From the NCBI GenBank assembly GCA_035368605.1, contig DAOSLF010000002.1, positions 12,023 to 76,022 on the forward strand: a DNA stretch of 64,000 bases, read 5' to 3'. The notes beneath the pieces are model-generated. The model was not told the DNA's origin. It ran no database searches and was given only the letters and a program-made list of their open reading frames with translations. Below are positions 4,773-57,087 of the stretch, piece after piece (the first letter of the stretch is position 1; every line of letters starts with the position of its first letter). Made by a program: the position numbers and the translations under genes. The stretch comes from Candidatus Omnitrophota bacterium. Lineage in GTDB: Bacteria > Omnitrophota > Omnitrophia > Omnitrophales > Aquincolibacteriaceae.

Positions 4773-6716
4773 ATGAACCCTGACATGATCTACCTTGTGC
4801 CCCTGCTCCCGTTCACGGCCTTCGTCGTCAACATTCTCCTCGGGGCCCGTTTCCTGAAACACCGCGCTTCCTGGCTTTCGATCGCGACAAGCGCCGCGGC
4901 CTGTGCGATCGCCCTTCCGATCTGCTTCGCAGTGTTCAAGGGCGGCCATTTCGCAGGCGAGTTCTCCTGGCTCCCGGTCGGCGGCGGTACGCTCCGGTTC
5001 GGCTACCTGATAGACCCGCTCTCGGCGTCCCTTCTCTTCATGGTCACGATCGTCGGCACCCTGATTCAGATTTACGCCTCGGGCTACATGGCGGGCGACC
5101 CGCGGTACAGCCGCTTCTTCGCCTACGTTTCCCTTTTTATGGCCGCAATGCTCACGCTCGTCATCTCGAACAACTTCATCCTCTTCTTCATGGCGTGGGA
5201 GATCATGGGGCTGTGTTCGTACCTCCTGATCGGTTTCTATTTTGAAAGGGAATCCGCAGCGAAGGCCTGTTTCAAGGCATTTCTCACGACCCGCGTCGGT
5301 GACGTCGGCTTTCTGATCGGCATGCTGACCCTCTTCACCGCGCTCGGCACCCTGAATTTTTCGGAAATCAATGGTGCGCTCGCGCACGGAAGCGCGCGCG
5401 CCGCCGTTCCGGCCTCGCTGCTTGTGATGTCCGCCCTGTTCATGTTCTGCGGGACGGTCGGGAAATCCGCGCAGTTCCCGCTGCATGTCTGGCTTCCCGA
5501 CGCGATGGAAGGCCCGACGCCCGTCAGTGCGCTTATCCATGCCGCCACGATGGTCGCGGCCGGCGTGTTCCTTGTCGCCCGCGCGTTCGTCATCTTCATG
5601 GCGGTTCCGGAGACGATGCCTGTCGTGACGGCGATCGGCTGCTTCACGGCTTTTATGGCCGCCTTCATCGCCCTCACGCAGACCGATATCAAGCGGATTC
5701 TCGCGTATTCCACGATCTCCCAGCTCGGCTACATGGTCACGGCTCTCGGCATGCAGGGGCTCGGCGCGGGAACGTTCCATCTGATCACGCACGCGTTCTT
5801 CAAGGCCCTGCTCTTCCTCGGAGCGGGGAGCGTGATCCACGGCACCCACGTCCAGGACATCCGCCAGATGGGCGGACTTTTCAGAAAAATGCCGCACACG
5901 GCGATTACGTTCATCATCGCGAGCCTTGCGCTGGCCGGCATCCCCCCGCTTTCGGGCTTCTGGTCGAAAGACGAAATCCTGTTGACGGCATTCGCCTCCG
6001 GCAACATTGTCGTTTTCTGGGTCCTGACGCTTTCGGCTTTCATGACGGCCTTCTATATGTTCCGTCTTGTTTTTATGACCTTCTTCGGGAAGGCGCGCGA
6101 CCCGCACGTGCATGCGCACGAATCGCCCGCCGTCATGACGCTTCCGCTCTGGTGTCTCGCGATCGGCTCCGTCGTGCTCGGCTTTCCCGGCTCGCCTTTC
6201 ATGCACCACTGGTTTCAGCGGTTCCTGGCCCACGCGGTACCTCATCCGGAATATCATCCGTCGGCGTTCGTGATGAGCTGTTCCGTGATCGCGGCGGTCT
6301 CCGGCATCGCGCTCGCGGGGATCATCTACCTGAAGAACGTCCATTGGGCCGAGGCGGTCGCGAAGGCCTTCCGGCCCCTTTATCAGCTTTCGCTCAACAA
6401 GTTCTATGTCGACGAAATCTACTCGCGGTTCGTGATCCGCCCCTTCCTCGCCTTGGGCCGGGTCCTTTTCCACTTCGACGCGACCGTGATCGACGGCGCG
6501 GTGAACGGCGCGGGCACGGGCTCGATGTGGCTCGGCGCGGTCAAGAACTGGTTCGACAAGAACATCGTGGACGGCCTCGTGAACTTCGTGGGCGCGTTCA
6601 CCTGTTTCCTGAATTCGGTCGTCAAACGTCTTCAGACGGGACTCGTTCAGAACTACCTGCTGATCGCGTTCCTGGGTTTTCTTGTTTTCATCATCCGGGA
6701 ACTGAAATTGATCTAA
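4773..6716 (+). CDS. nuoL: NADH-quinone oxidoreductase subunit L (antiporter-like)
   Basis: 647-aa polytopic protein with NuoL/MrpA-like motifs (WLPDAMEGPTPVSALIHAATMVAAGVFL). Confidence 0.95.
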   Translation: MNPDMIYLVPLLPFTAFVVNILLGARFLKHRASWLSIATSAAACAIALPICFAVFKGGHFAGEFSWLPVGGGTLRFGYLIDPLSASLLFMVTIVGTLIQIYASGYMAGDPRYSRFFAYVSLFMAAMLTLVISNNFILFFMAWEIMGLCSYLLIGFYFERESAAKACFKAFLTTRVGDVGFLIGMLTLFTALGTLNFSEINGALAHGSARAAVPASLLVMSALFMFCGTVGKSAQFPLHVWLPDAMEGPTPVSALIHAATMVAAGVFLVARAFVIFMAVPETMPVVTAIGCFTAFMAAFIALTQTDIKRILAYSTISQLGYMVTALGMQGLGAGTFHLITHAFFKALLFLGAGSVIHGTHVQDIRQMGGLFRKMPHTAITFIIASLALAGIPPLSGFWSKDEILLTAFASGNIVVFWVLTLSAFMTAFYMFRLVFMTFFGKARDPHVHAHESPAVMTLPLWCLAIGSVVLGFPGSPFMHHWFQRFLAHAVPHPEYHPSAFVMSCSVIAAVSGIALAGIIYLKNVHWAEAVAKAFRPLYQLSLNKFYVDEIYSRFVIRPFLALGRVLFHFDATVIDGAVNGAGTGSMWLGAVKNWFDKNIVDGLVNFVGAFTCFLNSVVKRLQTGLVQNYLLIAFLGFLVFIIRELKLI

Positions 6717-9786: not shown

Positions 9787-10251
9787 CTAGAACTCGCGCG
9801 AGCCTCTCGATCCCTTGCGGTGTCCACCGCCTCTTCCGAAACGTTTTTTGCGGAAACTTCCCGCGGCTCCGTGAGAACGGCCGAACGACCTTTCGGGACT
9901 TTCGTGATGCCTGCCGAATCCCCCGTCCTGGTCGTCGCGACGACCGGTATGGAATCCTCCGCCGCCATGACGGGGCTTGAAACCGCCACCCCCGCCGCGG
10001 AACGGACGGCCGAAGGGCTTGCGGTGCTCCCGAAAGCCACGGGAATCTTGTTTGCCTTCCGCGCGGTTCCCAGCGTTCTCTGACCTTTCGATCAGGAAAT
10101 TGAGTTTTTTCTCGAGAATCTCGAGCCGTTCGTTGATCTTCTCGAGGACCTCGGTGATGTCGACCTCTTCCATTTCATCTTCCCGGTCTTCTTCCCGTTC
10201 CCCGAATTCTTCTTCCTGGTTCCCGCCAGCCTGTTCGTTTCCCTTGTTCAT
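9787..10251 (-). CDS. Hypothetical RG/GGF-rich protein: acidic N-terminal coiled-coil segment followed by a low-complexity RGG-type tail
   Basis: 154-aa ORF with a good SD (AAGGGAG 6 nt upstream of the ATG). Co-oriented downstream of the rluA-family gene and ending at the shared terminator. Its composition could partly reflect high GC, so confidence is modest. Confidence 0.4.
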   Translation of the reverse strand: MNKGNEQAGGNQEEEFGEREEDREDEMEEVDITEVLEKINERLEILEKKLNFLIERSENAGNRAEGKQDSRGFREHRKPFGRPFRGGGGGFKPRHGGGGFHTGRRDDQDGGFGRHHESPERSFGRSHGAAGSFRKKRFGRGGGHRKGSRGSREF

Positions 10252-10364: not shown

Positions 10365-11276
10365 TTAAGTCACTATTTTCTCGAACGCGGCCGGGACCGG
10401 GAGATCGATCTCCGTCTCCTTGCCCGTCACGGGATGCACGAAGGCGAGATAGTGCGAATGGAGCGCGATCCGCTTCGCGGGATCGGTCCTGGCGCCGTAC
10501 TGGCTGTCACCGGCAATCGGATGTCCCATGTCGGAGAGCTGGACGCGAATCTGGTGCTTCCGCCCCGTACCAAGCTCCACCTCGAGGAGCGAGTGCCGGG
10601 GGCTTGAGCGCATCACGCGATAATGCGTCACGGAAAGCTTCGCGCCCTCGGTCGCGGGCGTGCTGTAGACCTTCAGGAACTTGTTCTCCCGCAGATAGCT
10701 TTTGAGAGTCCCCTCCGGCTTTTCTGGAACGCCTTCCACAACGGCATAATAGCGTTTTGTCACGTCCGGCCAGTTCGCCCGCAGGATTTCCTTCATCCCG
10801 GCCGTTTTGGCGAACATCAAAAGGCCCGAGACCTCCTTATCCAGGCGGTGCACGAGAAAGATTTGCTTTCCGCGCTTTACCGGAGCGGTCCCCGGACGCG
10901 GACGGGCAACCTCTACACCCTCCCGGAGGACATGCTCATTCGCGGCAAAAAAAGCCGTGCGGGTCGATACCTTGTCGGTCGAGATCGTCAGAAGTCCCGC
11001 CGGTTTTTCGATCACGAGAATCCGGTCGTCCTCGTAAACAATCCGGATACCGTACTTAAGGGACCCTGCGGCCGCGGCTTCTTTCACGGAAAGAACGCGT
11101 ACCGTATCGCCGGCTTTCAGGGGACGATCGAACCTTTTTTCGACACATCCGTTCACGAGCACCGAACCAAACTTCAGATATTGTCGCACCTTCGTGCGCT
11201 TCGTGTCCGCAAGAAGGCGGAACAGCGTTTCAAGGAGCGGCCCTTCTTTTGCGGGTGTGATCGAAAAATCTCTCAT
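10365..11276 (-). CDS. RluA-family 23S rRNA pseudouridine synthase (RluC/RluD-like, N-terminal S4 domain)
   Basis: S4 domain (TKVRQYLKFGSVLVNGCVEKRFDRPLKAGDTV) and catalytic HRLDKEVSGLLMFAKT motif. Start chosen at the internal ATG (MRDFSITPAKEG), which overlaps the upstream gene's stop by 4 nt (ATGA). The 487-aa track ORF extends upstream in frame over the neighbouring gene. Confidence 0.85.
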   Translation of the reverse strand: MRDFSITPAKEGPLLETLFRLLADTKRTKVRQYLKFGSVLVNGCVEKRFDRPLKAGDTVRVLSVKEAAAAGSLKYGIRIVYEDDRILVIEKPAGLLTISTDKVSTRTAFFAANEHVLREGVEVARPRPGTAPVKRGKQIFLVHRLDKEVSGLLMFAKTAGMKEILRANWPDVTKRYYAVVEGVPEKPEGTLKSYLRENKFLKVYSTPATEGAKLSVTHYRVMRSSPRHSLLEVELGTGRKHQIRVQLSDMGHPIAGDSQYGARTDPAKRIALHSHYLAFVHPVTGKETEIDLPVPAAFEKIVT

Positions 11277-11914
11277 GCTCTTTTTGCCGGCGGATCCCCC
11301 GCCCCAAAGAGTTTTTTCACGAAACGCCAGAGCCAGCGGATGAGGAGAAAAGCGAGGAAAAGAATGCCCAGGACAGTCAGCGTCGCGAGCACCGGGTGTT
11401 TGATAAAGAACCAGAACATCCCGATCACAAGGCCCTGTTCGACCGTACTGACCGCGATATTGGAGAAAGGTTCGGGCGAGGCGTTGATCGCGAGGCGACC
11501 CGCCGCTTTGGCCGTGTGCATGTTGAGCGTCATCGTCCCGGCCAACATCGCGTACGCGGTCTGGACGACAAGACCGTGTTCGGTTCCCGCGAGATAGCCG
11601 ATCCCGATCCCGCCGAGAGGCCGAATGACCGTGTGAACCGAATCCCAAACCGAATCCACATACGGGACCTTGTCTGCGATGAACTCGATCGCGAAAACGA
11701 TGAACGCCAGACTGAAGATGAGGGGGTTCGCGAAAACCGCGAGCTGGCCCGGAAGACCGATCCATCCGAAGAACCCGCAGAGGCCAAGCAGTCCGACCGC
11801 GAGGTACACGCTGATCCCCGCCGCCCACGCCCCGAGAATCACGACGAGGATCTCCCTGGGGGTATGCGCCACAATCCTGGTGATGTTTTCAATCGCGGCG
11901 GTCACGGCATCCAT
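11273..11914 (-). CDS. Polytopic inner-membrane protein, DUF4126-like
   Basis: 213-aa ORF with 5-6 predicted TM helices. Family assignment is from recall only. Confidence 0.5.
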   Translation of the reverse strand: MDAVTAAIENITRIVAHTPREILVVILGAWAAGISVYLAVGLLGLCGFFGWIGLPGQLAVFANPLIFSLAFIVFAIEFIADKVPYVDSVWDSVHTVIRPLGGIGIGYLAGTEHGLVVQTAYAMLAGTMTLNMHTAKAAGRLAINASPEPFSNIAVSTVEQGLVIGMFWFFIKHPVLATLTVLGILFLAFLLIRWLWRFVKKLFGAGDPPAKRA

Positions 11915-12210
11915 CAGTAGTTGAAAAGATCGCGGTGGGCAAACCGCTGGTCTTCCGGAACCGCGTTATGGAGGGCGTTCAGGATTTTGGTCTTCACGTT
12001 CGGCGTGAGGTACCGTCCCTTGCGGCCTTTCTGGACCATCTTGTGGGTCAGCTGTTCTTTCGAGGCCGAGACGAGATCGTGGTTGGAGAGTCCAAGCCGC
12101 GTCATGAGGGCATCGAGCGGTTGCGTTCCGTGTTCTTCCGCCACACATCCTCCCTTTCCCGTCTTAACTCCCGGTATTAGTTGGTGCAGGTTATCCGGCT
12201 TTAAGCTCAC
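11914..12210 (-). CDS. Small hypothetical protein with a helix-extended-helix (Rho_N/SAP-like) motif, directly downstream of rho
   Basis: 98 aa. The segment PLDALMTRLGLSNHDLVSASKEQLTHKMVQ resembles the HeH pattern of the Rho N-terminal helical bundle. Its start overlaps the rho stop region (12191-12210). Confidence 0.4.
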   Translation of the reverse strand: MSLKPDNLHQLIPGVKTGKGGCVAEEHGTQPLDALMTRLGLSNHDLVSASKEQLTHKMVQKGRKGRYLTPNVKTKILNALHNAVPEDQRFAHRDLFNY

Positions 12211-13258
12211 GACTCACGGCCGCGAGAAAATCCCTGTTGGTCGGGTATTTCCTGAGCTGCGTCGTGAGCGCCTGGATCGACTCTATCGGCTTCAGCCCCG
12301 CCAGGGCGCCGCGCATTCTTCGCACCGGTTCGAGTTCCTCGGGGGCCAGAAGCAATTCTTCTTTCCTTGTGCCGCTCCTGGAGATATCGACCGCCGGAAA
12401 GATTCGCTGATTCGATATCTCGCGCGACAGGTAGATCTCCATATTCCCGGTCCCTTTGAACTCTTCGAAAATATACTGATCCATCCGGCTCCCTGTGTCC
12501 ACCAGGATCGTCGCAAGAATCGTGAGCGAACCGCCGTGCTCGATCTTGCGAGCAGACCCGAAGATGCGCCGCGGCACCTCAAGCGCCCGCGCGTCCACGC
12601 CGCCCGAAAGCGTACGCCCGCTCGACATCCGCTCCGCGTTATGCACGCGCGCAAGGCGCGTCAGCGAATCGACCAGCACCATCACATTCGCGCCGTCCAG
12701 AACCTCGCGGTAGACCTGTTTCATCAGCCCGTCTGCCGTCGCGATGTGGTGATCGCAGGATTCGTCCGAAGACGACCAGCGGACCTCCGCCGGAGCGCTC
12801 CGCCTGAAATCCGTGACCTCCTCCGGCCGTTCATCGATCAAGAGGCAGTAGAGCTTCATTTCCGGATGGCTTTTCGCGACGGACCGGCAGACATGTTTTA
12901 AAAAAGTTGTCTTGCCGGTACCGGGGGGCGCGACGATGAGCCCGCGCTGTCCCATCCCGATCGGCGACACGAGGTCCATGACCCGCATCGTCATTTCCGG
13001 GAGGCCGTCCTCGAGACGGAGCCGCGGGGACGGATCGATCGCGACCGAGGCCCTGAATTTCCGGGAGATCTCGTCATCCTGAGAACTGGCCGGCTGCTGC
13101 CGCGCGTAGCCGTTCCGGGCATAGCCGTTCGGCGCGGGATGACGGTAACCCCCGTGTCCCGGCGCATACGGCTTCCGGGGACGCTGCGGCCGGCCGCGCC
13201 GCGGGCGTTCTCCCCCGCTTCCCTTCCCGTGCCGGTTTCCCGGATCAAAAGGTCTCAT
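12191..13258 (-). CDS. rho: Transcription termination factor Rho, atypical: the ATPase/C-terminal domain is complete, but the N-terminal helical bundle and OB-fold (CSD) are replaced by a ~62-aa RG/YG-rich low-complexity segment.
   Basis: Walker A RGLIVAPPGTGKT. Rho-specific motifs VDSLTRLARVHN, GGSLTILATILVDTGSRMDQYIFEEFKGTGNMEIYLSR and ISNQRIFPAVDISRSGTRKEELL. The region PSPRLRLEDG...MRVMDLVSPIG aligns to E. coli Rho residues ~140-170. ATG at 13256-13258 overlaps the ABC-F stop (ATGA). Confidence 0.9.
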   Translation of the reverse strand: MRPFDPGNRHGKGSGGERPRRGRPQRPRKPYAPGHGGYRHPAPNGYARNGYARQQPASSQDDEISRKFRASVAIDPSPRLRLEDGLPEMTMRVMDLVSPIGMGQRGLIVAPPGTGKTTFLKHVCRSVAKSHPEMKLYCLLIDERPEEVTDFRRSAPAEVRWSSSDESCDHHIATADGLMKQVYREVLDGANVMVLVDSLTRLARVHNAERMSSGRTLSGGVDARALEVPRRIFGSARKIEHGGSLTILATILVDTGSRMDQYIFEEFKGTGNMEIYLSREISNQRIFPAVDISRSGTRKEELLLAPEELEPVRRMRGALAGLKPIESIQALTTQLRKYPTNRDFLAAVSRELKAG

Positions 13259-15072
13259 TTTTGCAGCTTATCCATTTTGGTTTGCAGGGAGTACCATTCG
13301 TCCTCGGCTTTTTCGATACTGATCTGGATTTCTTTCAGCTTCAGATTGCGCTCCTTTGAAAAGTGCATGGGATTATCCGCCATCTCTTTCAGGATTTTGT
13401 CGCGCTCCTCGGTGAAATGTTTCATCCGGCCTTCCGCCTTGGCCAGGGCCTTCCTGAGTTTCGCGATCTCGGCGCCCGGCTTCGGCGTTTTCGCCGCAGG
13501 ACCGGCGGGGGCCGCTCTCGCATCACGGACCGGACCTTTCTTTTTCGGCTCCGGCATCTCCCCCGCAACCGTTTCTTCCCGTTCCCCCCGCGCTACCTGT
13601 TCGCGGAAGTAAACATAATCTTCATAGCTCCCCGGATACCTCAGGACCCGCCCGCGTTTTACTTCAAGGATCTTGTCCGCGACCAGGTTCACGAAGGTCC
13701 TGTCGTGGCTGATGAACACGACCGTACCGTTAAAACGTTTCAGGGCCTGGCCGAGCGATTCCACGGTCTCGAAGTCCAGATGGTTCGTCGGTTCGTCGAG
13801 GAGCAGGACGTGGCTTTTTGAGAGGAGGATTCCCGCCAGCACAAGCCTCGCCCGTTCGCCTCCGCTCAGGACCTTCACCTTCTTTTTGACGTCATCTCCC
13901 TTGAAGAGGAAACATCCCGCCATATTGAGGACATCCTGGTTCGTAACGCCGGGATGGCTCTCCCGCACAAGATGCGTATAAATATCATCCTCCGGATCGA
14001 GGGCCGAGAACACGTGCTGGGCATAAAAAGCCGTCTTCAGCCCCGTTCCCCAGCGGAATGTCCCCGCTTTGGGGGCGAGATCACCCGCCATGGTCCTCAG
14101 CAGGGTCGTTTTCCCCTCGCCGTTGTCACCGAGCACGGCGACGCGATCCCCGCGCTCGATCTCGAATTCGATCCCGCGCGCGACATCCTTTTCCGGATAT
14201 CCCACAGTGAGATCTTCGCACGCGAACGCGATCCCCGCTTTCGCTTCGATAGGCGGGATCGGAATCCTGACGTTCGACATCGGATGGCCGATCTCTATCG
14301 TTTTCAGTTTCGCGAGCTGCTTCATTTTCGACTGGGCGCGTGAAGCCGTCGACGCCTTGGCGCGGAACCGGTCGATAAAGGCCTGAAGCTGCTCGCGTTT
14401 TTTTTCAACGCCCCGGTTGTGGGCCTCGGTCTGGGCGGTTCGGACTTCCTTAAACTCGAAATATTCCTCGATGTCCCCCGGATACAACGTCAATTCGCCA
14501 CCTTCAACCTCCAGCGTGTGATCGCAGGTCCGTTTCAGAAACTCGCGGTCGTGGGAAACGACCAGGCATCCGCCTCGGAAATCGATCAGGAAATTCTCGA
14601 GCAGGATCAGCGTGTTGAGGTCCAGGTAATTGCTCGGCTCGTCAAGGATCAGAAAATTGGGATCTCCAAGAAGCATCGCGGCCAGCTTCACGCGCGTCTG
14701 ATAACCGCCCGGAAGACTGCGGACCGTCGCCTCCAGCATGTCATTCGGAATCCTGAAACGGGCGGCCATCTGGCCGCATTCCCAGTGTTCGCTTTCCGTC
14801 GCGCGCATCAGGTAGTCGAGAACGCTTTCACCATCGCGGAAAACATCGTGCTGTTCCAGATAGCTGAGGCGTAACGCCGCGTTCTTCGAGACCGTCCCGC
14901 CGTCAGCGGTCTCGTGGCCCGTGATGATCCGGCAAAGCGTGGACTTCCCGGCGCCATTCCGGCCGATCACGCCGATTTTCTGGTCGTCCTCAAAAGCGGC
15001 CGTGGCGTTCTCAAGGATGACCGAAGCGCCGTAGGCCTTGCAAATGCCGTTGATCTGTAAAAGGACCGTCAT
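13255..15072 (-). CDS. ABC-F family ATPase (two ABC domains plus a C-terminal coiled-coil; Uup/EttA-like ribosome-associated factor)
   Basis: 605 aa. Two Walker A motifs (GRNGAGKST, GDNGEGKTT), two LSGGE signatures, and a C-terminal charged coiled-coil tail. Confidence 0.9.
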   Translation of the reverse strand: MTVLLQINGICKAYGASVILENATAAFEDDQKIGVIGRNGAGKSTLCRIITGHETADGGTVSKNAALRLSYLEQHDVFRDGESVLDYLMRATESEHWECGQMAARFRIPNDMLEATVRSLPGGYQTRVKLAAMLLGDPNFLILDEPSNYLDLNTLILLENFLIDFRGGCLVVSHDREFLKRTCDHTLEVEGGELTLYPGDIEEYFEFKEVRTAQTEAHNRGVEKKREQLQAFIDRFRAKASTASRAQSKMKQLAKLKTIEIGHPMSNVRIPIPPIEAKAGIAFACEDLTVGYPEKDVARGIEFEIERGDRVAVLGDNGEGKTTLLRTMAGDLAPKAGTFRWGTGLKTAFYAQHVFSALDPEDDIYTHLVRESHPGVTNQDVLNMAGCFLFKGDDVKKKVKVLSGGERARLVLAGILLSKSHVLLLDEPTNHLDFETVESLGQALKRFNGTVVFISHDRTFVNLVADKILEVKRGRVLRYPGSYEDYVYFREQVARGEREETVAGEMPEPKKKGPVRDARAAPAGPAAKTPKPGAEIAKLRKALAKAEGRMKHFTEERDKILKEMADNPMHFSKERNLKLKEIQISIEKAEDEWYSLQTKMDKLQK

Positions 15073-15388
15073 GATCGGGATTCGGGGTTTCGGAACCGGA
15101 TCTCGGGAAAGATCACCGGGATCAGCCGTGAAAGATACAAAGACACGCCGTCAGGCGGTCCCGATCGCATAAAACGCGACCGTGTTCGAAATAAAACAAG
15201 GTCAGGCCATCAGGATAACGCTGTTGGCCAGCGCCTTGAGACCGGACTGCCTTTTCCCGTGAACGAAAGCCGCAAATCCGGTGCGGGGAAAAAGAATCCG
15301 GACGAAAAGACCGGACGCGTTCATTCCCTTCCTGTGAAGGACCCGTCCCGGGGATGTGTTCAGCGCGTCCCCCGGAGCGGGACCGGTA

Positions 15389-18144: not shown

Positions 18145-18882
18145 TCATCCGACGATAGCGTTCGCTTTCTGGTAGGAGGCGATGTCGCCGATATCCAGCC
18201 ATTTCCCTTTGAGAGGGAATGCGTAAAGCCCCGAGATCTCGGCAAGCCACCGCATATAATGTCCAGGTTGGTCCGTATTATGGCCCCCCTTGATATAGGT
18301 GTCAAGGAGGCCCCAGATCTCCTTCGGCAGCCAGTAAATGCCGCACGAAGCAAGCGTTGTCTTCGGCTCCGGAGGCTTTTCCTGGAACTCCAGGACCTTC
18401 CCATCCTCCGAGGTCCGCACGAGGCCGTAGCGCTTTGCGAGCTCTCTATCCCCTACGTCGTAGACCGCGATCAAGCCGTGCGGCCGGACCTTCCCGCCGT
18501 AGTCCGTCAACGCCGTCAGATCAAAATCGAAGAAATTATCCCCCGCAATAATCATCAGGTCATCCGGCCGGAGCGCTTTCGCGCGAATCGTGTAGGCCAG
18601 GTCCCCAATGGCCCCGAGCCTCGTCTCATTCGAGGATGTCCCGTCATCAACAACCTCGACCGGCCAGGGATATTTCGCGGAAGCGGCCCACGCCGCGAAA
18701 TGCCCCGCAAACTTCGCGTTGCTCACGATATAGACGGCCTCGATCCCCGAAACCTTCCCGACCCGGTCCAGAATCCATTCGAGAATGGGTCTGCCGCCCA
18801 CGGGAAGAAGGGGTTTTGGCTGGTTCTCGGTCAAGGGATAAAGGCGGGTCGCGTAGCCCGCGCAAAGAAGGATGACTTTCAT
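18145..18882 (-). CDS. Sugar-phosphate nucleotidyltransferase (NTP_transferase family; mannose/heptose-1-phosphate guanylyltransferase-like)
   Basis: 245 aa. N-terminal MKVILLCAGYATRLYPLTENQPKPLLPVGGRPILEW, typical of this family. Confidence 0.8.
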   Translation of the reverse strand: MKVILLCAGYATRLYPLTENQPKPLLPVGGRPILEWILDRVGKVSGIEAVYIVSNAKFAGHFAAWAASAKYPWPVEVVDDGTSSNETRLGAIGDLAYTIRAKALRPDDLMIIAGDNFFDFDLTALTDYGGKVRPHGLIAVYDVGDRELAKRYGLVRTSEDGKVLEFQEKPPEPKTTLASCGIYWLPKEIWGLLDTYIKGGHNTDQPGHYMRWLAEISGLYAFPLKGKWLDIGDIASYQKANAIVG

Positions 18883-30459: not shown

Positions 30460-31230
30460 TTATACATCCTCCGCGGAGCCCCCCTGGCTGCGGGCCCGTG
30501 CCAGACGCGACTCAACCTCCCGGAGGTCCTCTTCCGTATCCACGCTGATGAAATCAAAATCGGTCTCGATCACGCGAATCTTCCGGCCCCTTTCGAGGAC
30601 CCTGAGCTGCTCCAGTTTCTCGGTCATTTCCAGGACACCGGGTTTCCACGCGACGAATTCCAGAAGGAACCCGCGGCGGTATCCGTAAACACCGAGGTGC
30701 TTCAAAAAGCTGAACTCGCGGTCCTGCTGCCCCTGCGCGTACGGAACCGGGGACCGCGTAAAATAAAGCGCGCATCCGCCTTCATCGCAGACGATCTTGA
30801 CGACATTCGGGTTGGCGAACGCGGCGCGGTCCGTCATGCGGAGGGCGAGCGTCAGCATTTCGGGGACGCGCGAGACCCGGAAAAGCGCCACCATTTCATC
30901 GAGGGCTTTCGGGTCCACAAGCGGCTGGTCGCCCTGGATATTAATCACGATCTCGTGATCGAATTTTCGCATGACCTCCGCGATACGCGAAGTTCCGTTC
31001 GGGTGATCACGTCGGGTCATGACGGCCATGCCGCCGAACCCCCGGACACAGCGCTCGATCCGTTCGTCGTCGCAGGCCACGATCACATCTTCAAGCGACC
31101 GGGCCTTGCGGGCATTCTCCCAGACGTGCTGGATCATGGGTTTGCCGGCGATCGTCCGGAGAATCTTTTCGGGAAGGCGCGTCGAACCAAGACGCGCGGG
31201 AATGACACCGATCGCTTTCATCGCATTCAT
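30460..31230 (-). CDS. kdsB: 3-deoxy-manno-octulosonate cytidylyltransferase (CMP-Kdo synthetase)
   Basis: 256 aa. AIGVIPARLGSTRLPEKILRTIAGKPMIQHV. Confidence 0.9.
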   Translation of the reverse strand: MNAMKAIGVIPARLGSTRLPEKILRTIAGKPMIQHVWENARKARSLEDVIVACDDERIERCVRGFGGMAVMTRRDHPNGTSRIAEVMRKFDHEIVINIQGDQPLVDPKALDEMVALFRVSRVPEMLTLALRMTDRAAFANPNVVKIVCDEGGCALYFTRSPVPYAQGQQDREFSFLKHLGVYGYRRGFLLEFVAWKPGVLEMTEKLEQLRVLERGRKIRVIETDFDFISVDTEEDLREVESRLARARSQGGSAEDV

Positions 31231-55024: not shown

Positions 55025-56185
55025 TCAGACTCCGTATAGTGTTGAAAAAAGGTCCAGAATCTCCGGCCCCGCGAAATAGAAAATGACCGCCATCACGGCC
55101 AGGAAAGGACCATACGGGATCGTTTCCTGTTTTTTCGCGAACCGGCAAAAAAGCGCGTACGGCAATGCGATAAAAGGCGCAAACATGAAAACAAGGACCG
55201 TCAGCCAAGGCCCGAGAAACGTCCCGATCATCGCCATCAGGCACAGGTCGCCGAACCCCATCGCCTCGCGCGAAAGGACCATCGCCTCGGCTCTCCCCTC
55301 AATCACGCCCGCGTCCGCAAGCGCGTGTTCCTTGCCGGCGACACGGAAGCTTTTTTCGGAGATCTCGACCTCTACGTCCTTGAAATTCCCGCCCGCGAAC
55401 CTCAACGTCGCGGCGCGAAAAACGATCCGGTCCGAAGACCGGTTAAAGATATCGTCCCACGCGATCGAGCTGCAGGACGGATCCAGATATTGCCCGCGCG
55501 TCAGAGTGTCCGCCAGGCGCTGAAAAAAACCGGAAACTCCGCCGGCGCGCGACGCGAGAGGGGCCCCAGGCTGGTCGATCAGCAAACGGTTGTCCTTGAT
55601 AGTAATGACGGTCCCCGGGGCCAGACGGACTTTCCGTTTTCCAAAGAGCAGTTTCCCCAGTTCCGCAACGGCAAAAATGGTCGCGGCGCCCGTCACAAGA
55701 CCGAGCACGCTCGCGAGCAACTTATGATACCACAAGCCCTGAGGCACCAGGCGCGCGTTCACAACGCTCACGCAGACCCCGAAGATCATCCCCGTCCACG
55801 TGACGCCATGAGGGATGAATCCCGTTTCCAGGTCCGTCAGCGTCACCACGATCATCATCGACACAAAGACCGCGGCGATCGCGAACGCCGCCGAAAGACC
55901 GCAGCTCCGCCAGATCAGGAGCCAGCTCACGGCGTTCAGAAGTTCCACGAAAAAATACCGGAACGAAATGGGACGCCTGCAGCGGAAGCACTTGCCGCGG
56001 AGAATGAGATAGCTCAGGAGCGGAATATTCTCGTACCACGGGATCGGGATCTTGCATTTCGGACAGAACGACCCCGGCCAAACGATCGAAAGCTCCCGCG
56101 GCATCCGGTGAATGCAAACATTCAGAAAACTCCCCGCGATCGCGCCGAACACGAAGATGATAACGGGGTAGAACATTTCAATCAT
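55025..56185 (-). CDS. pilD: Type IV prepilin peptidase (A24 family, PilD-like) with a ~110-aa insertion in a cytoplasmic loop
   Basis: N-terminal Zn-finger (CPKC...CFRC), TM helices, and the catalytic-loop context ELGKLLFGK ... EAMGFGDLCLMAM. The two motifs are separated by ~110 extra residues; total length is 386 aa versus a typical 250-290. Confidence 0.85.
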   Translation of the reverse strand: MIEMFYPVIIFVFGAIAGSFLNVCIHRMPRELSIVWPGSFCPKCKIPIPWYENIPLLSYLILRGKCFRCRRPISFRYFFVELLNAVSWLLIWRSCGLSAAFAIAAVFVSMMIVVTLTDLETGFIPHGVTWTGMIFGVCVSVVNARLVPQGLWYHKLLASVLGLVTGAATIFAVAELGKLLFGKRKVRLAPGTVITIKDNRLLIDQPGAPLASRAGGVSGFFQRLADTLTRGQYLDPSCSSIAWDDIFNRSSDRIVFRAATLRFAGGNFKDVEVEISEKSFRVAGKEHALADAGVIEGRAEAMVLSREAMGFGDLCLMAMIGTFLGPWLTVLVFMFAPFIALPYALFCRFAKKQETIPYGPFLAVMAVIFYFAGPEILDLFSTLYGV

Positions 56186-57087
56186 GGCTTGCCTTTTGTC
56201 CTGAGCGCCTCGAGGAGCGCGTTACGCATCACACTCACCGGAGCCTTTCCCCCGGTCCAGCATTCGAACGCCCGAACGCCCTGATAAAAAAGCATCCCGA
56301 GACCGTTCAGGGTCCGGTGACCGCGTTTCCGGGCCAACGCGAGAAAACGGGTCTCGGCCGGATTATAGATCAGGTCCATGAAAAGCTTCGGGCCGGCGTC
56401 CGCCTTCGGGATCCACTCCGAAGGGACGGCCATCGGGTCCGTTTTCTTGAGACCGAGCGGCGTGGCATTCACAACAAGATCAGCCTTCCCGATCAGTTCG
56501 CGGATGCGAAGGTCCCCCGACCGGAGGGCCTCAAAAGCGGTCCCGCGGAATACCCGCCCCAGATCGCGGGCGATCTTTTCCGCTTTCTCGGGGAACATGT
56601 CCACCACCGTGACCGCACGGGCTTTTTTCCTGGAAAGACCGTAGACGACCGCCCGCGACGCCCCTCCCGCACCAAGGATGACCGCGCGCTTCCCTTCCGG
56701 CCGATACTTCCCTTCCCTGCCCAACGAGAGCAGGAACCCTTCCATATCGGTGTTCGCGCCGAACCAGCGCGTGCCTTTTTGATAGACCGTGTTGACCGCG
56801 CCGATCTCCCGGGCCTCGCGTGAAATACCGTCAAGGTATTTCAGCACGGTCTCTTTATACGGCACCGTGACATTGAAACCGGAAAGGAGGGAACGTCTGA
56901 GACCGCGCATTGCCTCACGGAATCCCGCGGCATCCTGTTCGAGGACAATATAGTTCGCATCGATCCCGAGGGCGCGAAATCCGGCTTCATGCATGTGGGG
57001 GGAAAGGGTGTGTTCGAGGGGGTAACCGAAGATCCCGAAAAGCCTGAATCCCGTATGACGTTTCACCGATCTCATCGAGCGCTCCAA
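56182..57087 (-). CDS. aroE: Shikimate dehydrogenase
   Basis: 301 aa. FGIFGYPLEHTLSPHMHEAGFRALGIDANY and an NADP-binding GAGGASRAV motif. Confidence 0.85.
   Translation of the reverse strand: MERSMRSVKRHTGFRLFGIFGYPLEHTLSPHMHEAGFRALGIDANYIVLEQDAAGFREAMRGLRRSLLSGFNVTVPYKETVLKYLDGISREAREIGAVNTVYQKGTRWFGANTDMEGFLLSLGREGKYRPEGKRAVILGAGGASRAVVYGLSRKKARAVTVVDMFPEKAEKIARDLGRVFRGTAFEALRSGDLRIRELIGKADLVVNATPLGLKKTDPMAVPSEWIPKADAGPKLFMDLIYNPAETRFLALARKRGHRTLNGLGMLFYQGVRAFECWTGGKAPVSVMRNALLEALRTKGKP

Follow-up and report, generated by a model that had tools for sequence, protein, structure and literature searches.

In classic translationally coupled gene pairs, both genes lie on the same strand, the stop codon of the first overlaps the start codon of the second as ATGA or TGATG, and the downstream gene lacks a Shine-Dalgarno (SD) sequence. 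The trp operon of E. coli is the textbook case of such overlapping genes, whose products belong to one pathway or complex. To our knowledge, no ABC-F gene of E. coli adjoins rho, and a search of one literature library found no paper on an ABC-F gene and rho in one operon, no mention of Rho in Omnitrophota, and nothing relevant on domain-less Rho paralogues. The ABC-F proteins YbiT, YheS, and Uup of E. coli (EttA is more distant) have tandem ABC ATPase domains, a PtIM linker, and no membrane domain, and YheS and Uup also carry a C-terminal coiled-coil extension. The C-terminal domains of Uup and YheS have been described as nucleic-acid-binding or tRNA-binding-like coiled coils, and Omnitrophica are among the taxa listed for the ABC-F subfamily DAF2 of Murina et al. 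(PMC6723617). Canonical Rho, as in E. coli, Thermus, and Mycobacterium, has Rho_N and OB-fold RNA-binding subdomains in addition to its ATPase/translocase domain. Moreira et al. (2024) defined a Type 4 Rho in which only the N-terminal domain is missing and called proteins with a single Rho domain "Rho-like", in an analysis that did not include Omnitrophota (PMC11347177).

The locus described here lies in a 64,000-nt stretch of a Candidatus Omnitrophota genome (GCA_035368605.1, contig DAOSLF010000002.1; hereafter the window), where a complete ABC-F gene directly precedes rho on the same strand. The two genes head a run of five, in the order ABC-F, rho, a gene for a 76-aa Xre-like protein, DUF4126, and RluA, with junctions of -4, +46, -1, and -4 nt. 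The features are as follows.

15073..15388, minus strand: 316-bp gap between ahcY and the ABC-F gene, not a conserved leader
13255..15072, minus strand: gene for an ABC-F ribosome-associated ATPase (ORF of 605 aa: NBD1, PtIM linker, NBD2, spacer, C-terminal helical hairpin)
13261..13479, minus strand: C-terminal two-helix (coiled-coil) hairpin of the ABC-F protein, residues 532-604, from the AlphaFold2 model and orthologs
13255..13258, minus strand: ATGA overlap of the ABC-F stop codon (TGA, 13257-13255) and the rho start codon (ATG, 13258-13256), read from the sequence
12191..13258, minus strand: short rho gene, 355 aa, with the ATPase/translocase domain at residues 66-350 and neither a Rho_N nor an OB domain
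11914..12144, minus strand: gene for a conserved small protein of 76 aa, with a GTG start and a GGGAGG SD sequence
11273..11914, minus strand: gene for a DUF4126 membrane protein (Pfam DUF4126, E 4.4e-41)
10365..11276, minus strand: gene for an RluA-family pseudouridine synthase (Pfam PseudoU_synth_2, E 3.6e-30), the end of the compact run

The original prediction was of a dedicated ABC-F-rho operon, a description that does not fit a pair heading a five-gene run with two more overlaps further downstream, where the ATG of the DUF4126 gene overlaps the stop codon of the 76-aa gene by 1 nt (TGATG) and the RluA ATG overlaps the DUF4126 stop codon as ATGA. The run is probably ordinary, lineage-specific compact-operon architecture, an explanation to which, taken as a whole, we assign a probability of about 0.68. 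The 76-aa protein has no Pfam domain; its predicted five-helix fold (AlphaFold2 pLDDT 86) is Xre/Cro-like, with weak Foldseek matches to C-proteins and to Cro and Xre repressors (TM 0.5-0.67). Every one of its 221 homologues that carries a source name comes from Omnitrophota, and its gene keeps a constant position just 3' of rho in the clade of the window.

Judged from sequence and structural model, the 605-aa protein is a housekeeping ABC-F translation factor, arm-less and YbiT/YheS/Uup-like, predicted to act at the ribosomal E site. Like the E. coli proteins, it combines a tandem pair of ABC nucleotide-binding domains in a single polypeptide that has no transmembrane domain (two Pfam ABC_tran matches and the AlphaFold2 model, pLDDT 80); a PtIM linker joins the pair (ABC_tran_Xtn, PF12848, residues 187-260, E 7.3e-22; model helices 201-255). 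Walker A, Walker B, and H-loop motifs can be read intact in both halves, and all Foldseek matches of the model are ribosome-bound ABC-F proteins. The NCBIfam model NF000355 ("ribosomal protection-like ABC-F") is passed with 394.4 bits against a cut-off of 380, and among PDB sequences YbiT (E 5e-89) and YheS (E 6e-86) come closest. Nevertheless, none of the four E. coli factors is orthologous to this protein, as its subfamily scores of 327-380 bits stay far below cut-offs of 762-917 (380/806.75 for EttA, 330/900 for Uup, 328/917 for YheS, and 370/762 for YbiT). It further differs from them in its NBD1 signature motif, LPGGY instead of LSGG, and in a disordered, low-complexity spacer of ~35 residues (~495-531; disordered in the AlphaFold2 model at 503-529) before the hairpin. 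The hairpin itself, part of what had been foreseen for this complete two-domain protein and, as in YheS and Uup, a C-terminal coiled-coil extension, consists of long antiparallel helices (532-566 and 573-604, pLDDT 72-88) whose helix-NPxxFSxxRN-helix pattern is kept in 24 orthologs.

Over its full length, the ATPase/translocase domain of the rho product can be aligned to solved structures of canonical Rho (query residues 75-349 to chain residues 151-426, E 1e-85), and the Rho model NF006886 is matched with 369 bits (cut-off 315), but over model positions 131-412 only. The catalytic LLIDERPEEV, Q-loop-like GRTLSGG, R-loop-like TGSRMD, and the SGTRKEE arginine-finger region presumably correspond to those of E. 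coli Rho. The N-terminal primary RNA-binding site (Rho_N helix bundle and OB-fold Rho_RNA_bind), by contrast, is absent: Pfam finds ATP-synt_ab as the sole domain of the whole protein and nothing in residues 1-90 even at E<=10, and the 355-aa protein falls below the cut-offs of TIGR00767 and of the short-form Rho2 model (337 vs 628 bits). It also differs from Type 4 Rho, since both N-terminal subdomains are missing rather than the N-terminal domain alone. What remains ahead of the core is an MRPFD motif followed by a disordered stretch that is basic and rich in Gly, Pro, and Tyr (residues 1-65, nt 13064-13258). Alignments with Rho homologues of 340-350 aa start at residue 1, and the protein is, as far as sequence comparison goes, the typical rho product of the phylum, without the N-terminal domain and with predicted terminator activity.

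The overlap at the ABC-F/rho junction is equally well defined. The sequence reads ...CAA AAA TGA / ATG AGA CCT, with the four bases ATGA (13258-13255) common to both genes. Between residue 2 of Rho and the conserved core, which starts at residue 66, no codon for Val, Leu, or Met occurs; the ATG at 13258 is therefore the sole ATG, GTG, or TTG start ahead of the core, which bears out the predicted overlap of the ABC-F end with the rho start. No SD sequence precedes rho, although many genes in the window have one, and a consensus scan, covering sigma-70-like sites as promoters, found no promoter-like or terminator-like site between the two genes. With both genes complete and on one strand, a conserved ATGA, no intergenic promoter or terminator site, and no SD sequence for rho, co-transcription and termination-reinitiation coupling are the natural reading of the junction and plausible on this evidence. 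The comparison of SD sequences between coupled and uncoupled rho genes was uninformative as a clue to coupling, as most of both kinds lack a clear one. Structural coupling usually depends on a hairpin that covers the downstream start; no such conserved hairpin was found at rho, and the consensus energy around the junction (-0.65 kcal/mol) indicates no conserved RNA structure.

The same bases could in principle serve a programmed -1 frameshift at CAA AAA TGA yielding an ABC-F-Rho fusion protein, given that rho lies in the -1 frame relative to ABC-F in the window and that AAA, the final sense codon, could re-pair in that frame. We rejected this reading and regard it as having a negligible chance of being correct: the slippery run is not conserved (relatives have AAA CAA TGA, AAA ACA TGA, CAC AAA TGA, and similar), the junction offers no stimulatory structure, and fused homologues are lacking, with Rho matches of 261-380 aa and ABC-F matches of 524-629 aa.

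The arrangement is shared with other Omnitrophota. In 10 of the 17 species-level Omnitrophota-type loci, the gene directly before rho is ABC-F, and judging from this recurrence the adjacency is more than chance. Eight of the ten junctions are ATGA, one is TAAtcATG, and in one (L005) the genes are separated by ~630 bp of inserted sequence with an ORF for a small membrane protein. Across 66-84% ABC-F identity the exact ATGA persists, metagenome loci show the same pairing pattern, and in the lists of ABC-F and Rho homologues ~20 cluster pairs share one longest contig. Of all adjacencies in the block, ABC-F-rho is the one that persists most, and in L025 and L026 an ATGA-joined pair stands amid entirely different neighbours. 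This conservation, also in the company of other genes, makes co-expression and termination-reinitiation coupling of the two genes plausible, and the survival of the pair in L025 together with the exact ATGA at such ABC-F identities suggests that there may be selection for coupled expression.

Elsewhere in the phylum the two genes are separate. At least 16 other Omnitrophota rho loci and six loci with the same ABC-F ortholog are unpaired. Rho has no link to ABC-F in L011-L017, L043-L049, and L055-L058, and ABC-F orthologs with 61-68% identity lie away from rho in L021-L024 and L027-L030. In other lineages, rho is found beside pseudouridine synthases and DEAD-box helicases, in a neighbourhood generally made up of RNA-metabolism genes. 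In neighbor-joining trees of both proteins, all coupled loci group into a single clade, L025 branches close by, and uncoupled lineages are interspersed; these trees are simple and without support values, and do not separate one gain of the pairing from two. No sequence feature in ABC-F or Rho distinguishes coupled from uncoupled lineages. The synteny extends beyond this genome to 10 of 17 species-level relatives and is absent from most other sampled Omnitrophota lineages; on the loci compared, the pairing is lineage-restricted and not obligatory.

This distribution also bears on the possibility that rho and the genes downstream of it are expressed independently, from a promoter in the 3' end of ABC-F, with the overlap incidental to genome compaction and to the ATGAGA start. 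The Met-Arg start of Rho is encoded as ATG AGA, in uncoupled lineages as well, and since this conserved start contains TGA in the neighbouring frame, the overlap arises easily. Uncoupled rho genes also lack SD sequences, which implies that initiation is possible without an upstream terminating ribosome; the junction is unstructured, and L005 tolerates its insertion between the two genes. Against this, the minus strand between 11000 and 17000 shows no promoter-like site in a scan for the sigma-70 consensus only, and the exact ATGA recurs in eight of ten species-level syntenic loci and in L025. We consider independent expression unlikely. As the scan covered sigma-70-like consensus sites only, a rho promoter inside the 3' end of ABC-F is possible, an observation that counts against the compact-operon reading.

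The 316-bp gap upstream of ABC-F had been proposed to hold an autoregulatory leader of the type found at rho, a suggestion with which its sequence does not agree. Two thirds of the gap (positions 15115-15324, 210 bp) are what is left of an ORF for a small membrane peptide, now interrupted by two in-frame TGA codons, as revealed by a tblastn search of the window with the intact L005 peptide (E 2.5e-13, two stops). Beyond this decayed ORF the gap does not align to relatives, in which a Fe-alcohol dehydrogenase-like and/or a pyruvate-kinase-like ORF takes its place, ending 7-70 nt before ABC-F; a tblastn search of the window with these genes found no trace of them, so the gap is not their remnant. 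There is no Rfam match in 15073-15388, no unusual folding (z-score -1.42), and no C-over-G bias (C/G 1.11). The Rfam search, alignment, and folding rule out a conserved leader or riboswitch, and neither the conserved rut-like composition nor the structure of a Rho-type leader or attenuator is present. The likeness to the rhoL attenuator of E. coli is confined to the idea of an untranslated stretch upstream of a rho-containing operon: the gap in the window precedes ABC-F and not rho, is not conserved, consists mostly of the decayed ORF, and has neither a C-over-G bias nor an Rfam match.

Whether the two proteins work together is a separate question. The overlap had been taken to indicate a functional link between translation and termination, but further 4-nt overlaps occur in the window at 11273-11276, 18879-18882, 31227-31230, and 56182-56185, and such overlaps also join unrelated genes (shikimate dehydrogenase and prepilin peptidase; DUF4126 and RluA), a difference from the classic coupled pairs with products in one pathway or complex. 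In a dedicated module, an E-site ABC-F protein and a Rho without the primary RNA-binding site would cooperate, with the ATGA selected for stoichiometry; one way would be for ABC-F, or the basic hairpin at its C-terminus, to tag stalled or idle ribosomes or mRNAs and assist in loading Rho. This would accord with the loss of the OB-fold RNA-binding domain from Rho, with the properties described for the Uup and YheS C-terminal domains (PMC6723617), with the stability of the adjacency relative to the rest of the block, and with L025, where the overlapping pair is retained in an otherwise unrelated neighbourhood and the N-terminal extension of Rho is almost absent, so that another loading route would be needed. 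However, in most sampled Omnitrophota lineages this short Rho and this ABC-F ortholog, hairpin included, are both present but unlinked; neither protein differs in sequence features between coupled and uncoupled lineages; overlaps of this kind join unrelated genes here; and the literature search found no paper tying ABC-F proteins to Rho. A dedicated module is in our view improbable, and a true ABC-F-Rho partnership is possible but unsupported. More doubtful again is a stronger form, in which a Rho that lost its primary RNA-binding domain in one Omnitrophota lineage would depend on the co-translated ABC-F for its targets, with ABC-F sensing ribosomes with an empty E site, the basic hairpin bringing the RNA, and the ATGA setting the protein ratio.

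Under the compact-operon explanation, one promoter upstream of ABC-F would drive transcription of all five genes together, and ribosomes terminating at the ABC-F TGA would reinitiate at the overlapping rho ATG, which lies in an A-rich, unstructured stretch without an SD sequence. Such reinitiation would tie Rho output to the translation of ABC-F. The rough trees suggest that the common ancestor of a single Omnitrophota subclade may have gained the pairing, with several lineages losing it afterwards. The arrangement would then serve the co-expression of RNA and translation housekeeping genes, with no obligatory partnership between ABC-F and Rho. The persistence of the pair in L025, where every other neighbour differs, is an observation that counts against this explanation.

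For compact genomes in general, the locus is a reminder that a 4-nt overlap signals co-expression and not shared function. The more unusual feature is the Rho without an N-terminal domain across the sampled Omnitrophota loci, with its conserved MRxF[N/D] N-terminus and hypervariable basic tail. Were a dependence of Rho on ABC-F true, it would connect translation status to Rho-dependent termination directly, at the level of proteins, and if the pairing is functional, it would offer a testable handle on how a Rho without RNA-binding domains chooses untranslated RNA and on crosstalk between translation factors and termination.

We found the ABC-F and rho genes at the head of a longer run of minus-strand genes in the window, since three further same-strand genes follow rho:

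13255..15072, minus strand: ABC-F gene, 605 aa
12191..13258, minus strand: rho, 355 aa
12144..11914, minus strand: 76-aa ORF, 46 nt past rho, with the Shine-Dalgarno sequence GGGAGG
downstream of the 76-aa ORF, minus strand: DUF4126 gene, 1-nt TGATG overlap
10365-11276, minus strand: RluA-family pseudouridine synthase gene, after DUF4126, ATGA overlap

As described in the original prediction, the ABC-F stop codon overlaps the rho start codon. The junction reads CAA AAA TGA / ATG AGA CCT, and the ATGA at 13258-13255 is common to both genes. Val, Leu, and Met codons are absent from Rho residues 2-65, so that the ATG at 13258 is the sole ATG, GTG, or TTG start that includes the conserved core. 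In uncoupled lineages, i.e. those with no ABC-F gene directly upstream of rho, rho likewise opens with ATGAGA (Met-Arg), indicating that the TGA of ABC-F comes from the conserved N-terminus of Rho itself (MRxF[N/D]). Many window genes have a GGAG-like Shine-Dalgarno sequence and neither ABC-F nor rho does, but this comparison is non-discriminating because rho lacks one in most uncoupled lineages too. The junction is A-rich, and no conserved RNA structure was seen there. In a consensus scan, which overall returned no more sites than in shuffled sequence, nothing resembling a promoter or terminator turned up between the two genes. We infer that ABC-F and rho are most likely co-transcribed, with rho translated by termination-reinitiation.

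The 605-aa protein contains two ABC_tran domains and the ABC-F-specific linker ABC_tran_Xtn (residues 187-260; Pfam), and scores 394 bits against the NCBIfam model "ribosomal protection-like ABC-F family protein" (cut-off 380). As it falls far under the NCBIfam cut-offs for EttA, Uup, YheS, and the YbiT-like PRK15064, its sequence places it in the ABC-F family, outside every named E. coli subfamily; among proteins of solved structure, E. coli YbiT (E 5e-89) and YheS (E 6e-86) are nearest in sequence. An AlphaFold2 model built from 24 orthologs (pLDDT 80, pTM 0.68) predicts two nucleotide-binding domains, linker helices at 201-255, a disordered spacer (503-529), and a pair of long helices spanning 532-566 and 573-604. 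These helices form a C-terminal hairpin, the "coiled coil" of the original prediction, which correctly called a complete ABC-F protein. In this predicted ending, the protein resembles Uup and YheS, whose C-terminal extensions have been described as coiled-coil (PMC6723617). The top Foldseek matches of the model are all ribosome-bound ABC-F proteins (VmlR2, PoxtA, YbiT, EttA, and YheS). The signature of ABC domain 1 (residues ~120-125) is LPGGY, with Pro replacing the usual Ser (LPGG, LSGG, or LAGG in orthologs), and that of domain 2 is the canonical LSGGE, a difference which hints that the two ATP sites may be asymmetric.

The Rho protein has the ATPase domain and lacks the N-terminal RNA-binding domain. 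Residues 66-350 align both to solved Rho structures and to the Rho model (model positions 131-412), and residues 1-65 are basic, rich in Gly, Pro, and Tyr, and without a Pfam match down to E<=10. The best 120 matches are all short (261-380 aa). Against the NCBIfam model "Rho, short form", the protein reaches 337 bits, below the 628 cut-off. The scheme of Moreira et al. 2024 (PMC11347177), whose data set does not include Omnitrophota, would class such a protein as "Rho-like"; in their Type 4, only the N-terminal helix bundle is missing, whereas here the N-terminal RNA-binding domain is absent. Our literature search found no paper describing Rho in Omnitrophota. Rho proteins of 296-366 aa without this domain occur across the sampled Omnitrophota loci (window, L011-L017, L025, and L055-L058), where the conserved MRxF[N/D], encoded by ATGAGA, is followed by a basic His/Arg/Pro/Gly-rich stretch of 0 to about 60 residues.

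The closest relatives of both proteins are from Candidatus Omnitrophota metagenome-assembled genomes. Of the 17 loci with a window-type rho in a one-genome-per-species collection, 10 (L001-L010; rho identity 72-88%) have the ABC-F ortholog immediately ahead of that gene. The block order is metK, ahcY, one or two more genes, ABC-F, rho, and a small ORF, in most cases closed by DUF4126. The exact ATGA is kept in eight of the ten; the L010 junction is TAAtcATG, and in L005 the genes are ~630 bp apart, the insertion (5371-5997) carrying a small membrane-protein ORF, which indicates that the overlap can break without loss of either gene. In L005 and metagenome contig L035, the inserted gene encodes a multi-helix membrane protein and has its own strong Shine-Dalgarno sequence. 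Further ABC-F-rho cases were found on metagenome contigs (L031-L038, L041, and L053), and ~20 cluster pairs shared the same longest contig in both homologue lists, some contigs being just 4-5 kb.

The synteny thus holds in part of the relatives only, and the pairing is not obligatory. A short rho without ABC-F upstream is found in L011-L017, L043-L049, and L055-L058, and in L021-L024 and L027-L030, unrelated genes come after the full-length ABC-F ortholog (61-68% identity, C-terminal hairpin kept). In rough NJ trees of both proteins, every coupled locus falls in one clade, with L025 nearby and uncoupled lineages interleaved, for which a single origin followed by several losses would be the simplest reading. 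One lineage, L025/L026 (ABC-F 66-67% identical), retains the ATGA pair in a completely different gene neighbourhood, with NrdR and a zinc-ribbon ORF before it and MsrB and GIY-YIG after it. The Rho of this lineage (296 aa) has almost no N-terminal extension. The persistence of the L025 pair is the only evidence pointing past neutral inheritance.

A functional link cannot be read from the overlap, because genes of unrelated function in the window share 4-nt overlaps too, such as those for shikimate dehydrogenase and an A24 prepilin peptidase (overlap at 56182-56185, genes within 55025-57087, minus strand). Others join SIS-domain sugar isomerase and nucleotidyl-transferase ORFs, and PfkB kinase and cytidylyltransferase genes. 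No paper linking ABC-F genes to rho was found in our literature search, and we consider it very improbable that ABC-F helps a Rho without primary binding site to locate untranslated RNA.

The 316-bp gap between ahcY and ABC-F (15073-15388), proposed as a possible site of a rho-style autoregulatory leader, matches no Rfam family; its C/G ratio is 1.11 and its folding z-score -1.42. Its segment 15324-15115 (minus strand) matches, from end to end, a 69-aa two-helix membrane-peptide ORF that L005 carries uninterrupted at this position (1724-1930); the match has E 2.5e-13 and two in-frame TGA codons, indicating that a decayed small gene makes up two thirds of the proposed leader. Relatives carry an Fe-alcohol-dehydrogenase-like and/or pyruvate-kinase-like ORF here, ending 7-70 nt before ABC-F; the gap is thus particular to the window genome. 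While the observed ABC-F, ATGA, and short rho are confirmed, and co-expression of ABC-F and rho is plausible and conserved within one subclade, the regulatory leader, the dedicated operon, and the overlap-based functional link are not supported.

The 76-aa protein, whose gene always directly follows rho in the ABC-F-rho clade, belongs to a small family (221 homologues, named sources all Omnitrophota) without a Pfam domain. Its AlphaFold2 model is a confident five-helix fold (pLDDT 86) weakly resembling Xre/Cro/C-protein DNA-binding domains, and it may be an operon regulator. A 154-aa ORF (9787-10251, minus strand) 113 nt past the RluA gene has a good Shine-Dalgarno sequence and no Pfam match; its product is acidic at the N-terminus, probably helical in the middle, and Arg/Gly-rich (RGG-like) throughout the C-terminal half.

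In uncoupled L012, L013, and L015-L017, rho adjoins pseudouridine synthase genes (RluE/RsuA-like or S4-domain RluA-like), with DEAD-box helicase genes nearby. Together with the RluA gene of the window run, this places rho repeatedly among RNA-metabolism genes in the phylum.
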